Source: a virus. From it: DNA of 64,000 nt. Made by a program: the position numbers and the translations under genes. How positions within the stretch are numbered: position 1 is the stretch's first letter; every line of letters starts with the position of its first letter. Location: positions 6,679 to 70,678 of the IMG/VR virus record IMGVR_UViG_2974543594_000001; one strand, written 5' to 3'. This document shows positions 46,153 through 51,516 of the stretch, piece after piece. Below the pieces are notes generated by a model. It was given only the letters and a program-made list of their open reading frames with translations. It was not told the origin of the DNA and did no database searches.

Positions 46153-47595
46153 TTAATCTACGATGCGTTCGTGCATTTCTGCTACCTGACCGGTAACTTT
46201 GCTGACCGCCGCTTCAATTGCCGGAGCAACTGCGTTAGCGATAACTTCGTTAAAGGTCGGCTCTTTCACTTTCGGCTTGCTCTGCTCTTCGAGCAGCTTA
46301 CGCTGGGCCTGAATGGTCAGAGCGGAATCCAGCAGTGCTTTACCGCTGATTTGCTCGATAACAGTACCCGGCTCCTGATACTGGAGCTGGTGCAGCTTGG
46401 CACGTTTAACCACTTCAGCGATAACCGCCGGAATGGTACCTGCCAGCGCTTCGCCAACCAGAGTCAGGTCTTCAGATGCGTCGATGGTGTCACGACCGTA
46501 CAGGCGAACCAGTTTTTCAACTGCTTTCGCATCCGGCGGAGTCACATCGATGATGGCATCCAGACGGCCCGGACGCAGCATCGCTGGGTTGATGTTTTCG
46601 AGGTGGTTGGTAGTCAGAACGGTGATGATGCGAGAAGATTTAGTGTCGATACCATCCAGAATGTTCAGGATATCGTCCATCTTCACGCTACGTTCACCGG
46701 ATACAGCACGGTCGATATCTTCACAGAAGATAACGCACGCTTTGTCGCTGTACTGCTTAGCGAACTGAATCGCATCAGACAGCTCATCAGAGCGCGGCAC
46801 GTAAACGTAGGTAACGCCAGTTTTAACCGCGATAGACGCAGCAACTGTCGCAGCCATAGTTTTACCAGTACCGTATGGCCCACCCAGCAGTACGCCGCGT
46901 TTAACCGGCATGTGGTTGGCGATGCAGTCTTCAACGCGCTCAATCGGCGTGAACAGGTTGGTTTCAATCAGCTGGTTAACATCATCGGAATAAACCAGAG
47001 AATCGCGCGAGATACCTTGCAGATTCATGAATTCCGGTTCCGGCATTTCCAGCAGGTCGCCATCGTTATCGCGGAAGCGAATCTTAATCGCCTGACCCAT
47101 ATAGATGGATTCAGTGCGCAGTTTGTCTTCCACGGTATCGAACAGCAGCTCGATGGTACGCTCATCGGCGCGCAGTACTTTGGCTACCAGCTCAAAGCTG
47201 ATACGGCCATCTTTCTTGGCGACAGAGGTCTGAACAAAGCCTTCAACCTGCGGCAGAGAGAAGCGGCCCCACGGCACTTTTTTGGTACGGCCATAGCCGA
47301 CTTGTACGTCCAGCATCTGCGGAGGATTAGAGCCAAAGAAGCCCGGAGTCGCTTCAGCAGCAGCCCAGCCGTAACGTTCGGTCAGCGCGTTCATCAGCGC
47401 ATGGGCACCATCCCACGGGAATACGTTGTAGGTACGGCGCACAACAACTTCTTCTTCGTCGTACTTCTGACGACGCTTCAGCAGGTCGATAGCATCACCC
47501 AGCTTCATCTGCTCGGGCAGAATGATTTTTTCGCCGTGACGCACGACTTCTGCTACGTGAACTTCTTTTTCGTCTTGTTGAAGAGTTTTAGCCAT
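46153..47595 (-). CDS. classic-clade AAA+ ATPase with about 230-aa unique N-domain, encoded on a host-like GC-rich island
   Basis: 480 aa. Walker A is GPYGTGKT. Walker B is VIFCEDID. Sensor 1 is TTNH. SRH is PAMLRPGRLD. GC is clearly above the flanks and a long antisense ORF is a side effect. Confidence 0.7.
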   Translation of the reverse strand: MAKTLQQDEKEVHVAEVVRHGEKIILPEQMKLGDAIDLLKRRQKYDEEEVVVRRTYNVFPWDGAHALMNALTERYGWAAAEATPGFFGSNPPQMLDVQVGYGRTKKVPWGRFSLPQVEGFVQTSVAKKDGRISFELVAKVLRADERTIELLFDTVEDKLRTESIYMGQAIKIRFRDNDGDLLEMPEPEFMNLQGISRDSLVYSDDVNQLIETNLFTPIERVEDCIANHMPVKRGVLLGGPYGTGKTMAATVAASIAVKTGVTYVYVPRSDELSDAIQFAKQYSDKACVIFCEDIDRAVSGERSVKMDDILNILDGIDTKSSRIITVLTTNHLENINPAMLRPGRLDAIIDVTPPDAKAVEKLVRLYGRDTIDASEDLTLVGEALAGTIPAVIAEVVKRAKLHQLQYQEPGTVIEQISGKALLDSALTIQAQRKLLEEQSKPKVKEPTFNEVIANAVAPAIEAAVSKVTGQVAEMHERIVD

Positions 47596-47826: not shown

Positions 47827-48639
47827 TTACTCACCAAACTTAAGTTTGTTTTGGAAAGTACTGGATTTGACTTCATCTCGGGAAAGCTTGCCGTCCTGAA
47901 TGAAATACTGAGTAATTAACGTATTAACCATACGAATACCCAACGTATTCATCTCATAGTTATCTTTGATAAATGCTGAGATATCAGAGACAGCTTTATC
48001 TCTCTTAACTTCTGGAAATAAATCCAGATACATTGAGAGAGTAGATGAGCCTTTAAGTATATTAATTAAAGACTCCAGACTGACTTTGACAGTGTTGTAT
48101 ACCAAACCAACACGACCTAAGAACTCAGTCTTCACACCAAAGCTACGGAGCTTATCCAGAGTAATATCTGGTTCTCCGTTGAATGCTCCGGCGAAGACAA
48201 ACAGGACGTTACTTACAGGCACGTCCACATACTTGCCATAGTCGCCAAACACTGAGGTACACTCAGCTTCTAGAACCTTCAGGAATTCATTCTGAACTCC
48301 ATTAGTAGATTCATGGGCCAACTCACTATTGTTATTGCCTGCGATAAATAACTTGTCGAATTCATCTACAAAGCAAATAACAGGATTACCGTTGGCTTGG
48401 CGTAAAGGAGCTAAAGCTTTGCTTAAGCTATTACCCGATAAGCCTTCTTTGGTTAGCTGAGCAGCATTAATTTCGATGTAGTCCATCTTATGCTGGTCAG
48501 CCAGAGACTTAATTAAAAAGGTTTTTCCAGTACCACTTTCGCCAGTCAGAATGAAGTGAGGTCTCAACTGACATTCACTGGCTTTAAAGATAGAAAAGAT
48601 ACGGGAAATATCTTTCCTGAGTTGTTCTTGCTCTTTCAT
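47827..48639 (-). CDS. ClpX/HslU-like AAA+ unfoldase module (no N-terminal zinc finger, no cognate ClpP seen)
   Basis: 270 aa. ILTGESGTGKT, QLTKEGLSG, ICFVDEFDKL, NGVQNEFLKVLE, VLFVFAGAF and FLGRVGLVY parallel ClpX blocks. Confidence 0.6.
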   Translation of the reverse strand: MKEQEQLRKDISRIFSIFKASECQLRPHFILTGESGTGKTFLIKSLADQHKMDYIEINAAQLTKEGLSGNSLSKALAPLRQANGNPVICFVDEFDKLFIAGNNNSELAHESTNGVQNEFLKVLEAECTSVFGDYGKYVDVPVSNVLFVFAGAFNGEPDITLDKLRSFGVKTEFLGRVGLVYNTVKVSLESLINILKGSSTLSMYLDLFPEVKRDKAVSDISAFIKDNYEMNTLGIRMVNTLITQYFIQDGKLSRDEVKSSTFQNKLKFGE

Positions 48640-49052: not shown

Positions 49053-49310
49053 TTACTCCAAGTATTTTCTGAATACGCCTGCGAAGCAGGAGTCTCCCTC
49101 TTGAAGTCCATGCTCCTGACATAAGCCATGATGGTCTAATCGACAGTCATGACCGACATAATCTAAAGCATCTTGGATAGCCTGCTTTAAATCCTCTGGC
49201 AATTCGAATTCTGGTTCAGGTGGTGGTTGTTTCCATCCACATAACTGACAGTCCATACCGTCAACATAAGAACCGCATTCGGTATTTTGGCAATACAGGT
49301 AAAGACCCAT
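49053..49310 (-). CDS. Cys/His-rich small protein (putative zinc-binding)
   Basis: 85 aa. CQNTEC...CQLC and HDCRLDHHGLCQEH. Confidence 0.4.
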   Translation of the reverse strand: MGLYLYCQNTECGSYVDGMDCQLCGWKQPPPEPEFELPEDLKQAIQDALDYVGHDCRLDHHGLCQEHGLQEGDSCFAGVFRKYLE

Positions 49311-49390: not shown

Positions 49391-50488
49391 TTAACTGTTT
49401 ACGTGAATCAGTTGTCCGAACTTAACTTCTGCTCTTGGGTTATCAAGGCAAACCCAAATAACATTAGGTACAGGTGCTTTCTCCATTTGACGACAGTCTA
49501 AATCAGAGAAGACAACTATCAGTTCGGGTTTCTCTTTAGCTGCGTGGTCATACACGCAACCTAATGAGGTACCTCCTCTACCAGTGAATTCACATTGACT
49601 GATATCATCTCCTTCCTCTAACTCATACACATTATGAATCTTCGTATCGAAGGTGCAGACAGTAATCCTTTTTGGATTAAGCTGTTTTTTAATGGCATGA
49701 ATTTCACTGATGTATACAGTGAACTGTGCATCAGTAACTGAACCAGAGATATCAGTATAAAAAATGATATGCTCTAGTCCTTCAGAGTTTAATGAAGGAA
49801 GATAGATATCTGGAAGAAAACGTCTATTGACCTTCTTCCACGAATAATCATTTCGAGTCATCTCATTAACAAAGTTTCTGAGAATGTCATTCCACGGCAG
49901 TTTTGGATTTAGTAAATCCTCTAGATAGGCTCGTATGTCTCCGGGAATATCGCCGTATTGACCACGTTGAGACGCAGCAATACTGCTTCGGATAAGCATA
50001 GAGTCAATCTGAGTATTGACCTGTTCATCCGATAGACCTTGGTTTTTTTTAATATCTAAACCAAATCCACCAGAAGGTATTGGAGGGGGATTACTGAACA
50101 GCAAATCGTAGATTTGTGGAGCACTCATACCATCGTACTTGTGGTCCATCAATCCAGACTCCATCGCATAGCCAGCGTCATCCAACATATTATTTATGTA
50201 GTAGTCGCAGGCATAGTTCCAGATGGTTGGATTTCTTCCCGATAGTCTCGACATGTGTTTTAACACAACATGCCAGGTTTCATGGGCGAGAAGTGTCACC
50301 CTCATCGGCCTGGATAAATCCATAAAGAACTTTGGATTTATTTCTATACTCAACCCATCAGTACAAGCTGTGGGTACATCATCATTCCAGTTCAACTGAA
50401 GTGAGCAGAACATAGAACAGATGAAAGTATTCTTTCTTATCGAGAACAAATCTACTTTTGCTAAATCTAACGCTTTATCTTTATCCAT
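49391..50488 (-). CDS. VWA-domain protein with N-terminal HExxH metallopeptidase-like domain (DUF2201-like)
   Basis: 365 aa. HETWHVVLKH in the N-terminal half. C-terminal half has a VWA-like DxSGS motif (DISGS). Immediately downstream of the MoxR ATPase. Confidence 0.55.
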   Translation of the reverse strand: MDKDKALDLAKVDLFSIRKNTFICSMFCSLQLNWNDDVPTACTDGLSIEINPKFFMDLSRPMRVTLLAHETWHVVLKHMSRLSGRNPTIWNYACDYYINNMLDDAGYAMESGLMDHKYDGMSAPQIYDLLFSNPPPIPSGGFGLDIKKNQGLSDEQVNTQIDSMLIRSSIAASQRGQYGDIPGDIRAYLEDLLNPKLPWNDILRNFVNEMTRNDYSWKKVNRRFLPDIYLPSLNSEGLEHIIFYTDISGSVTDAQFTVYISEIHAIKKQLNPKRITVCTFDTKIHNVYELEEGDDISQCEFTGRGGTSLGCVYDHAAKEKPELIVVFSDLDCRQMEKAPVPNVIWVCLDNPRAEVKFGQLIHVNS

Positions 50489-50499
50489 GCAGGGTCTCC

Positions 50500-51516
50500 T
50501 TAGAGCATACCTGCACCAGACTCGTTAGCGTATTTCATCACCCAATCCTGAACTTCAGGAACTTGAACAATGGCAGGCCGTGCTTTAACAGCACTACTTA
50601 AAGTTACGATTTGGAATTCAACCGGCAGTTTATTGATAAACTTCATCAACTGAGCACCGTTATTGGGGTCAATCTTAGAAGCAACATAACCAGCATATGC
50701 GTATTTAATGTCTGGTCTGTTCTCAATTTCAATGCCTTCTGGGTCTTTGAGAATTTCTTCGATAGTCTTAATCTTTCCATAGATTGAAGTATATTCGATG
50801 AACTCTCTCGCAGCCCCCGGACCAATTATCCCAGAGATAATGCCAAAGTCATTATCAATGGTGAGTTCTAAGCCATGAGAAACACGGCTGGTAAAATCCC
50901 AAGTACGAGGACATGGGAATGGGTTTTTAAGGTCCTGTGGGTTGAATTTATGGAACAGGTCTTCCTTAAACATTAAGAAAGATAGGATGCGATGGTCGAT
51001 GGCATTATCCAATGCCCAGATTTTCCAATCATCGAAGTTCGCTTCCAGTTCCAAATTGACGATACGTGACAGAGTTGCACTACTCATTGTAGTGGTGATA
51101 GCTCCATCAGTATCTTTGTTACCTGCCGCTGCAATATATACGTCAGGATGAAGTTTGGTTTGACCAACCATCCCATCCAATAACTTATACGCAGCAGCTT
51201 GAACAGCTTTTGGCGCTGTATTCATCTCATCGAGGAACAGCAGCCAGCCGTTATAACCTTCAGGTATTTTATCCCCTAAGATGGGGATATCTTTTGGTGG
51301 GTGATAAACCGAACGCCCGTTTTCAATATTAGGAAATCCGAGCAAGTCAGTTGGGTCACACTGACCTAAGCGTAGGTCAATAACCAGCAACTTAAACTCT
51401 TTGGCTATCTGACGAATAATCGCAGATTTACCAATGCCCGGACTACCTTTGATAAACGGGACCAATTTAGCGCCGAAAGCACGCTCTATGGCACGCTTAA
51501 TAGCTATTGGTCTCAT
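50500..51516 (-). CDS. MoxR/CbbQ-type AAA+ ATPase (AAA_5)
   Basis: 338 aa. Walker A is GSPGIGKS. Walker B is LLFLDEMN. Paired with the VWA protein. Confidence 0.65.
   Translation of the reverse strand: MRPIAIKRAIERAFGAKLVPFIKGSPGIGKSAIIRQIAKEFKLLVIDLRLGQCDPTDLLGFPNIENGRSVYHPPKDIPILGDKIPEGYNGWLLFLDEMNTAPKAVQAAAYKLLDGMVGQTKLHPDVYIAAAGNKDTDGAITTTMSSATLSRIVNLELEANFDDWKIWALDNAIDHRILSFLMFKEDLFHKFNPQDLKNPFPCPRTWDFTSRVSHGLELTIDNDFGIISGIIGPGAAREFIEYTSIYGKIKTIEEILKDPEGIEIENRPDIKYAYAGYVASKIDPNNGAQLMKFINKLPVEFQIVTLSSAVKARPAIVQVPEVQDWVMKYANESGAGML

Follow-up and report, generated by a model that had tools for sequence, protein, structure and literature searches.

What can a ClpX-like ATPase do for a phage that encodes no ClpP? 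This question is raised by gp39 (YP_009884190), encoded in a 64,000-nucleotide stretch of viral DNA (the window; positions 6679-70678 of IMG/VR record IMGVR_UViG_2974543594_000001). Over a 6-kb stretch around the gene the DNA matches Klebsiella phage KpCHEMY26 (NC_049467) at 100% identity, an N4-like podovirus (Schitoviridae, Pylasvirus) with a genome of 70.7 kb. In GenBank gp39 is labelled 'CLP protease; CLP Protease ATP Binding subunit; AAA+'. An earlier note on this DNA described an orphan ClpX-like unfoldase module, which might hijack host ClpP, cap it to block host proteolysis, or act as a stand-alone remodeller. On balance, we think that gp39 is probably a protease-independent, stand-alone remodeller or disassembly factor of the replication phase.

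The kinship of gp39 was analyzed by sequence, profile and structure comparison. gp39 matched Pfam AAA (E 4.7e-15) and AAA_2 (PF07724; 34.2 bits, cut-off 27), and the best matches in a sequence search against solved structures (PDB) were ClpX chains (E 1e-14). NCBIfam models ranked ClpX first and HslU second. A profile of 47 family members, with matches to the large as well as the small AAA+ subdomain, gave E-values of 8e-33 for ClpX, 7e-24 for HslU and 6e-16 or weaker for all other AAA+ proteins. An AlphaFold2 model of gp39 was obtained with a predicted local distance difference test (pLDDT) score of 91.9 and a predicted template modelling (pTM) score of 0.87. The top 50 Foldseek matches of this model were all ClpX chains, and the best structural match among HslU proteins was the I-domain-deleted construct 1ofh. 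The HCLR-clade trait, an AAA_2-type core with a beta-hairpin ahead of the sensor-1 strand, is present as well; in the model, strands 127-131 and 137-141 form the hairpin preceding strand 145-151. By sequence, profile and fold, the nearest relative of gp39 is ClpX, with HslU a close second, and the similarity greatly exceeds what chance would give. Identity to ClpX is only 21-25%, and gp39 scored below the equivalog cut-offs for ClpX (PRK05342, 63.5 bits vs 359; TIGR00382, 54.3 vs 370.75) and HslU (TIGR00390, 35.6 bits vs 362.45). All motifs quoted in the earlier note were located (ILTGESGTGKT at residues 30-40, LTKEGLSG at 62-69, ICFVDEFDK at 88-96 and FLGRVGLVY at 173-181). The last of these aligns with ClpX EFIGRLPV and contains the arginine finger R176. 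With ClpX also nearest in every comparison, the assignment to a ClpX-type AAA+ module holds.

The catalytic residues of the ATPase core are conserved. Residues were mapped on E. coli ClpX, using a sequence identical to PDB 8e91_A at 423/424 positions. The Walker A lysine, the Walker B DE pair, the arginine finger and the sensor-2 arginine all occupy equivalent positions in gp39 and ClpX (Table 1). In an alignment of 47 family sequences, with identities down to 33%, K39, E93, R176, R236, G33, G175 and G234 were invariant. Within Walker B, D95 and K96 were invariant too, and D92 was found in 38/39 sequences. Local motifs common to gp39 and ClpX include LT-x-E/A-G before the pore loop, VQ-x-x-LK, GAF and FG-x-x-x-EF-x-GR. 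The earlier note had considered part of the C-terminal small subdomain to be missing; it is essentially present, including R236. The ratio of nonsynonymous to synonymous substitution rates (dN/dS) was 0.04-0.10, at dS 0.6-1.1, when gp39 was compared with its orthologues from phages of Salmonella, Shigella and E. coli. Together with the invariant ATP-site residues, these values predict that gp39 and its family are functional ATPases. Because the arginine finger acts in trans, activity should need ring assembly, by analogy into a hexamer. The metagenomic member P0144 points the same way, carrying an HNH-containing intein inside its Walker A loop. Inteins usually sit at functionally critical sites.

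While this core is shared, gp39 differs from ClpX in having no C4 N-domain, no GYVG motif, no full RKH loop and no 33-residue IGF segment. In total, 149/424 ClpX residues have no gp39 counterpart. The zinc finger with its linker (4-80), part of the RKH loop (231-235) and the IGF-loop segment (265-297) are unmatched, as are the blocks 90-97, 174-179, 384-393 and 412-421. gp39 begins 29 residues ahead of the Walker A strand, and no zinc-finger Pfam match was obtained; the zinc-finger N-domain is missing, as the earlier note had stated. The gap at ClpX 265-297 contains I268-G269-F270, and an 18-residue connector stands in place of a 51-residue ClpX segment. The HMMER alignment to PDB 6wr2 jumps from chain position 221 to 257 while the query advances from 159 to 162. 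The spacer between GAF and EFxGR measures 18 aa in 145/156 family members, compared to 51 aa in E. coli ClpX and 10 aa in HslU. Judged by this uniform spacing, the deletion of the IGF segment is ancestral to the family. An IGF/LGF loop, the conservation of which the earlier note had proposed to check, was not found family-wide, the only [ILMV]G[FLM] matches being FGL or IGL beside EFxGR and not a loop. Binding to ClpP needs the IGF tripeptide, and replacing its I by E served to make a strain that has ClpCP but not the ClpXP protease (PMC5603545). E. coli ClpX with this change kept its ClpP-independent chaperone activity on Mu transposase (PMC5603545).

gp39 and HslU share a short connector at the site of the IGF loop (18 aa and 10 aa, respectively). 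They differ in that gp39 has no I-domain (∼130 HslU residues were unmatched in a three-way alignment), no GYVG motif and no conserved HslV-docking tail; its C-terminus reads …FQNKLKFGE, compared to …EDLSRFIL in E. coli HslU. Hijacking of host ClpP and capping of host ClpP would both need the IGF loop that is deleted family-wide, and since an HslU-style tail is missing as well, neither proposal of the earlier note finds support. The combination found is a mixed one: there is no ClpP-docking loop, but the best structural matches are ClpX and not unrelated AAA+ proteins.

Two elements that contact the substrate in ClpX have been rewritten in gp39. In the pore-1 region T63, E65, G69 and S71 are invariant, position 74 is K or R, and the family frame T-x-E-G-x-S-G-N-S-L-S-K is nearly invariant. 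ClpX GYVG corresponds to G-[T/I/V/L]-[S/A]-G in the family, and the acidic GEDVEN that follows GYVG to SGNSLSK. At the position of the pore-1 tyrosine (residue 67), 187 members carried Thr (121), Ile (24), Val (14), Leu (9), Tyr (7), Met (6), Phe (1); an aromatic residue was present in 8/187. In ClpX, Tyr153 of pore-1 makes most of the contact with the substrate backbone, and the pulling force passes via bulky aromatic and aliphatic pore-loop side chains (PMC7112952). The second element is the tip of the pre-sensor-1 beta-hairpin, DYGKY, a shortened version of the ClpX RKH loop in which ClpX R228 and 231-235 are unmatched. Here G135 is invariant, and Y134 and Y137 are conserved in at least 90% of the sequences.

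Table 1. Coordinates of gp39, its sequence elements, neighbouring genes and features of related loci. Positions refer to the window unless a family locus (L number) is given.
Feature	Position	Strand	Basis
gp39, 270 aa, minimal ClpX/HslU-clade AAA+ ATPase, large and small subdomains only	47827..48639	-	ORF, GenBank record, PHROG 5534 match
Walker A P-loop GESGTGKT, residues 33-40 (K39 = ClpX K125)	48520..48543	-	aligned with ClpX and HslU of E. coli
Pore-1 loop region TKEGLSGNSLSK, residues 63-74 (L67 = ClpX Y153 position, S68 = V154 position)	48418..48453	-	ClpX mapping
Walker B ICFVDEFDK, residues 88-96 (D92/E93 = ClpX D184/E185)	48352..48378	-	alignment
Pre-sensor-1 beta-hairpin tip DYGKY, residues 133-137 (K136/Y137 = ClpX K229/H230)	48229..48243	-	mapping and model hairpin
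18-residue connector, residues 154-171, in place of the ClpX segment bearing the IGF loop	48127..48180	-	ClpX alignment
EFLGR, residues 172-176, arginine finger R176 (= ClpX R307)	48112..48126	-	alignment
Sensor-2 GIR, residues 234-236 (R236 = ClpX R370), small AAA+ subdomain	47932..47940	-	alignment and DNA reading
gp35 and gp36	49391-51516	-
Terminator-like hairpin	49345-49327	-
gp37, 85 aa, PHROG 28967	49053-49310	-
gp40, annotated 61 aa	47691-47876	-
gp41, 480 aa, classic-clade AAA, PHROG 10440	46153-47595	-
Antisense ORF, 493 aa	46171-47652	+
tmRNA	L005 9615-9973
tmRNA	L022 903-1287
tmRNA	L064 11424-11829
tmRNA	L070 1634-2054
tmRNA	L097 5284-5689
DUF805b RNA motif (Rfam RF02914)	L064 9439-9471
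P0122, RNase H-linker-AAA fusion	L091 6001-7578

A peptidase partner was searched for in the phage itself. With E. coli ClpP and HslV as tblastn queries, neither was found in the window (best E 1.4), and no ClpP/HslV-type peptidase is annotated anywhere in the KpCHEMY26 genome; the absence of a phage ClpP, as given in the earlier note, is confirmed within these limits. In the reading that we favour, gp39 would belong to the ClpX/HslU branch as a self-contained ring ATPase, reduced to its motor core, and the ring would work without a protease, driven by ATP, during the middle (replication) phase of infection. Its target, which may be a host protein, a phage protein or a nucleoprotein complex, would be engaged in or at the central channel via the polar pore-1 loop E-G-x-S-G-N-S-L-S-K. 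The tyrosine hairpin tip D-Y-G-K-Y, replacing the RKH loop, would also contact the target. The ring would be expected to remodel a loosely structured partner locally or to extract it. Without the aromatic pore-1 paddle, it is unlikely to unfold stable domains processively. Among the roles proposed in the earlier note, that of a stand-alone remodeller is thus the best surviving one, but a ClpX-grade processive unfoldase it is unlikely to be.

This remodeller reading is supported by the ClpX/HslU kinship, the conservation of the ATP site and the low dN/dS, the family-wide deletion of the IGF segment, the lack of zinc finger and I-domain, the variable C-terminus, and the lack of a phage ClpP or HslV. 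The lack of a constant neighbour gene and the setting in replication, recombination and nucleotide-metabolism modules (both described below) also speak for it. Further support is provided by the precedents of ClpX acting independently of a protease, namely the remodelling of the Mu transpososome and the activation of ALAS by mitochondrial ClpX, and by the chaperone activity of the IGF mutant described above. These enzymes are a model for gp39 in that a peptidase-free, ATP-driven ring acts on a specific client. However, they have kept aromatic pore loops, N-domains and mostly ClpP-docking loops, while gp39 has lost all three. The activation of ALAS by mitochondrial ClpX needs the aromatic pore loops (PMC7077987), and since the precedent enzymes depend on these loops, the analogy is only partial. 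Several points weigh against a remodeller. The loss of the pore-1 tyrosine in ∼96% of members questions a polypeptide-pulling activity, and ring formation is predicted only from the arginine finger and from homology. A host partner could still dock via a non-canonical surface. Furthermore, literature searches gave annotation tables and no functional study of any member.

The distribution of the family was analyzed in phage and cellular sequences. gp39 is a full-length member of PHROG 5534 (E 8.5e-132; residues 1-269 on profile positions 2-270 of 273), which is labelled 'unknown function'. A large protein collection contained >2,000 matching proteins, the top 120 of which were all ∼270 aa long, and at E <1e-30 the matches formed 54 clusters (50% identity). 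Matches at E 1e-5 or better were present in 211 phage records. The low-identity tail of these records (Lak, Staphylococcus and Listeria phages) consists of true ClpX-type relatives and not of family members, and larger relatives of 600-1200 aa with 32-34% identity were two-ring ClpB-like proteins, uninformative on function. Members were found in Pylas, Pollock, Shigella and Pseudomonas LIT1-like phages and in N4-like phages of Erwinia, Salmonella, Klebsiella and E. coli. Other members belong to Proteus Demerecviridae, Vibrio VpKK5 and to Chryseobacterium, Tenacibaculum and Acinetobacter phages. At least four lineages carry the gene, and the Klebsiella phage member is ∼60% identical to Bacteroidota phage members. 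A bacterial gene family was ruled out, as only ∼12 true loci were detected in 185,579 species genomes of bacteria and archaea. Most of these lie on contigs of metagenome-assembled genomes (MAGs) or on N4-like-sized contigs with MoxR and von Willebrand factor A (VWA) genes adjoining. In L098 (Xenophilus sp., 914-kb contig), L099 (Vreelandella venusta, 76-kb) and L102 (Clostridia MAG, 74-kb) the family gene is directly followed by an N4 gp24-like MoxR gene, and L099 and L102 also contain the gp25-like VWA gene. The L098 locus could represent an integrated or carried N4-like element. The family is nearly phage-specific, patchy and apparently horizontally mobile, whereas ClpX is universal in bacteria.

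The term 'orphan', used in the earlier note, is an overstatement for a protein with an existing Clp ATP-binding subunit label in GenBank and a large phage family. At the annotation level the gene was known before, often mislabelled as a protease, and in PHROG 5534. New, as far as can be told, are the family-wide loss of docking and selection elements, the conserved non-aromatic pore loop and the tyrosine hairpin. Two labels in wide database use, 'Clp protease' and 'ClpP-like protease', mislead; a better description would be 'ClpX/HslU-like AAA+ ATPase, no peptidase-docking elements'. In ClpX and HslU, accessory loops and domains define function; this family keeps only the motor and rewrites two substrate-contact elements in a conserved manner, yet remains under strong purifying selection. 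Phages of distant bacterial phyla have come to share it. It represents a natural minimal ClpX and a tool to ask what the core motor does alone. The protein may also serve in host takeover or replication, and it is present in phages considered for therapy, among them Klebsiella Pylasvirus, Pseudomonas Litunavirus, and Salmonella, Erwinia and Proteus phages.

On the minus strand of the window, the genes are arranged in the order gp35 (MoxR-like ATPase), gp36 (VWA/DUF2201), a terminator-like hairpin, gp37, gp38, gp39 and gp40. Past this last small open reading frame (ORF) follow gp41, a NinI-type phosphatase, a Dda-like helicase and DNA polymerase. In an N4-like genome this neighbourhood forms the middle block, that of the replication phase. 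The ATG start codon of gp39 has one base in common with the gp38 stop codon (TAATG), an AGGA lies 9-14 nt 5' of the ATG, and gp38 itself has no Pfam match. For a survey of neighbours, ORFs from 86 family loci were clustered, which gave 56 groups after dereplication at 85%. No universal neighbour gene was found in the 56 dereplicated loci, which argues that no partner is needed in cis. The commonest neighbours were an N4 gp24-like MoxR ATPase (15 groups), a gp25-like VWA protein (12), a helicase (12), a ligase (11), a Sak4-like protein (10) and DUF7173 (9). Three contexts were apparent. In N4-like phages the family gene adjoins the gp24-like MoxR ATPase and gp25-like VWA genes, MoxR often lying 13 bp downstream. 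In ∼55-kb siphovirus-type contigs it stands with primase, DUF7173, ligase, Sak4-like and DUF669 genes, in the order primase, DUF7173, family gene, ligase, Sak4-like, DUF669. In 100-280-kb phages it is located beside NAMPT and other accessory genes. Genes of replication, recombination and nucleotide metabolism surround the family gene in every lineage examined.

The conserved (panproteome) protein table of N4-like phages lists gp24 and gp25 and not the gp39-type gene (PMC7650795), and the family gene is therefore accessory in these phages. A conserved upstream partner was rejected, since the upstream genes in five phages were unrelated (cell-wall hydrolase, DUF7173, RNase H and proteins without a match). 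A separately encoded zinc finger of the gp37 type was also rejected as a general feature, small ORFs with four cysteines being found at 12/568 near the gene vs 29/1587 elsewhere. Membership in a defence system was not supported either, as PADLOC gave weak generic P-loop matches only.

The gene context and the altered pore also suit a different client. gp39 might be a nucleic-acid or nucleoprotein motor modelled on RuvB, a ring that uses its polar/basic pore-1 loop and tyrosine hairpin to thread or remodel the DNA, RNA or RNA-DNA hybrid intermediates of phage replication or recombination. RuvB likewise belongs to the HCLR clade and shares with gp39 the pre-sensor-1 beta-hairpin, the lack of an aromatic pore-1 paddle, and a DNA recombination/replication context. 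We regard this as unlikely, although the gene is always found within replication or recombination modules (primase, ligase, Sak4-like AAA_24, DUF669 SSB-like, RNase H, helicase, DNA polymerase). A protein remodeller acting on the replisome or on a host factor would show the same module location. The acidic GEDVEN of ClpX has become an invariant SGNSLSK, and the aromatic paddle of polypeptide translocases is missing, both of which fit a nucleic-acid substrate; a nucleic-acid-binding domain was not found by Pfam. P0122, from a 55-kb phage contig, is a true single-ORF fusion of RNase H, linker and AAA domain, flanked by primase, DUF7173 and DNA ligase genes, and in Acinetobacter phage HD01 a separate RNase H gene overlaps the start of the family gene; the fusion occurs in 1/56 groups. 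An equally unlikely version would be a re-tooled ClpX-derived ring, rid of the aromatic paddle and of all protease-docking parts, in which the SGNSLSK loop and DYGKY act on nucleic acid or nucleoprotein, for example RNA-DNA hybrids or primed templates. If the nucleic-acid reading were true, a protein from the classic unfoldase branch would have turned into a replication/recombination motor that is spreading horizontally among unrelated lytic phages. The remaining alternatives involve host or phage proteins. As a poison subunit or decoy, gp39 would co-assemble with host ClpX or HslU, or compete for adaptors and substrates, and thereby shut down ClpXP or HslUV proteolysis; mixed rings would be short of IGF loops or tails, and their pore loops would be defective. 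The core fold, the ATP site and the arginine-finger geometry are kept while exactly the output elements are lost, the ∼60% identity between members from phages of Enterobacteria and Bacteroidota would fit a universal host target, and the patchy, seemingly horizontal spread resembles that of host-takeover genes. Such a role is nevertheless improbable, given an identity to ClpX of 21-25%, no sign of compatible subunit interfaces, and a strong family-specific conservation of pore-1 and hairpin that a passive poison would not need.

We also give little credence to a multi-ATPase system of gp39 with gp35, gp36 and/or gp41, for instance one feeding substrates to the HExxH domain of gp36. A MoxR gene is in the locus in 15/56 groups, often at the 13-bp distance mentioned above, and gp36 carries a DUF2201_N 'putative metallopeptidase' domain. 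However, the MoxR-VWA pair is on the N4-like panproteome list and the gp39-type gene is not, and the latter occurs without the pair in Demerecviridae, Queuovirinae-like, Bacteroidota and large phages. A 'metallopeptidase' near the homologue in Proteus phage 2 turned out to be an exoribonuclease-like protein. HslU and proteasomal ATPases use C-terminal tails for docking, and gp39 might bind host ClpP or HslV by a comparable non-canonical element, such as its C-terminal [ST]FQxKLxF. This hydrophobic motif is conserved in the close 270-aa subgroup; it is unlike the HslU tail and is missing in the shorter Erwinia/Pectobacterium-type members, which end at query residue ∼248. The C-terminus is variable in general, with 10-50 residues past sensor-2 across the family and many members stopping shortly after the sensor-2 helix, and in gp39 residues 261-270 were modelled at a mean pLDDT of 62. 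With the IGF loop, needed for ClpP binding (PMC5603545), deleted family-wide, a host-peptidase partner is very improbable.

A link to trans-translation was considered as well, in which the family ATPase would handle proteins tagged by a phage transfer-messenger RNA (tmRNA). A phage-encoded tmRNA was found 0.3-5 kb from the family gene in five independent loci (Table 1), and ssrA tags are the classic ClpX degron. Rfam confirmed the four loci tested, while L097 was called by ARAGORN alone. Two of the five tmRNAs are permuted, and the encoded tags end in …LEVAA, …ELIAA, …LAEAA, …AVMA and …IRLAA. The loci have otherwise unrelated genes: four were compared, with L097 outside the comparison, and no other ORF was in common save one weak match. 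Compared to 80 thymidylate-synthase-anchored phage loci, which contained one tmRNA, the excess was not significant. Family loci are rich in tRNAs in general (111 in 77 loci vs 12 in the 80 control loci; present in 29/77 and 5/80 loci, respectively), the tmRNA-to-tRNA ratio is not raised, and this general richness explains the tmRNA excess. In the KpCHEMY26 window no tmRNA was found. The RKH loop, which is essential for ssrA recognition by E. coli ClpX (PMC7112952), is not conserved in the family, and we consider a role in trans-translation hardly credible. In L064, a DUF805b RNA motif lies between the family gene and the tmRNA (38.8 bits vs a gathering score of 35.6).

Some observations concern the genes around gp39. 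gp35, a MoxR-like AAA_5 ATPase, and gp36 correspond to the N4 gp24/gp25 pair, which is conserved across N4-like phages. The DUF2201_N domain of gp36 contains HETWH and is accompanied by a VWA-like domain; the label 'HNH endonuclease' (RefSeq, PHROG 1314) is unsupported by these Pfam domains. gp37, two genes upstream of gp39, has an N-terminal zinc-ribbon-like motif (CX4C-X8-CX2C) but is unlikely to be a ClpX-type zinc finger that has become detached. The final 50 nt of gp39 are shared, in a different frame, with gp40. At its position Shigella phage B2 has a 44-aa ORF without overlap, and the coding status of gp40 is doubtful. gp41 is labelled 'metalloprotease/FtsH'; Pfam, PHROG and NCBIfam scans found an AAA domain only and no peptidase domain. 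Its gene forms a sharp GC island (51-55% vs ∼40% on either side), and its DNA matches Erwinia phages at 75-79%, which suggests a recent horizontal acquisition. An antisense ORF covers the whole gp41 gene and is probably a by-product of base composition. The gp41 locus also gave weak matches to the anti-phage ATPase IetA/IteA.

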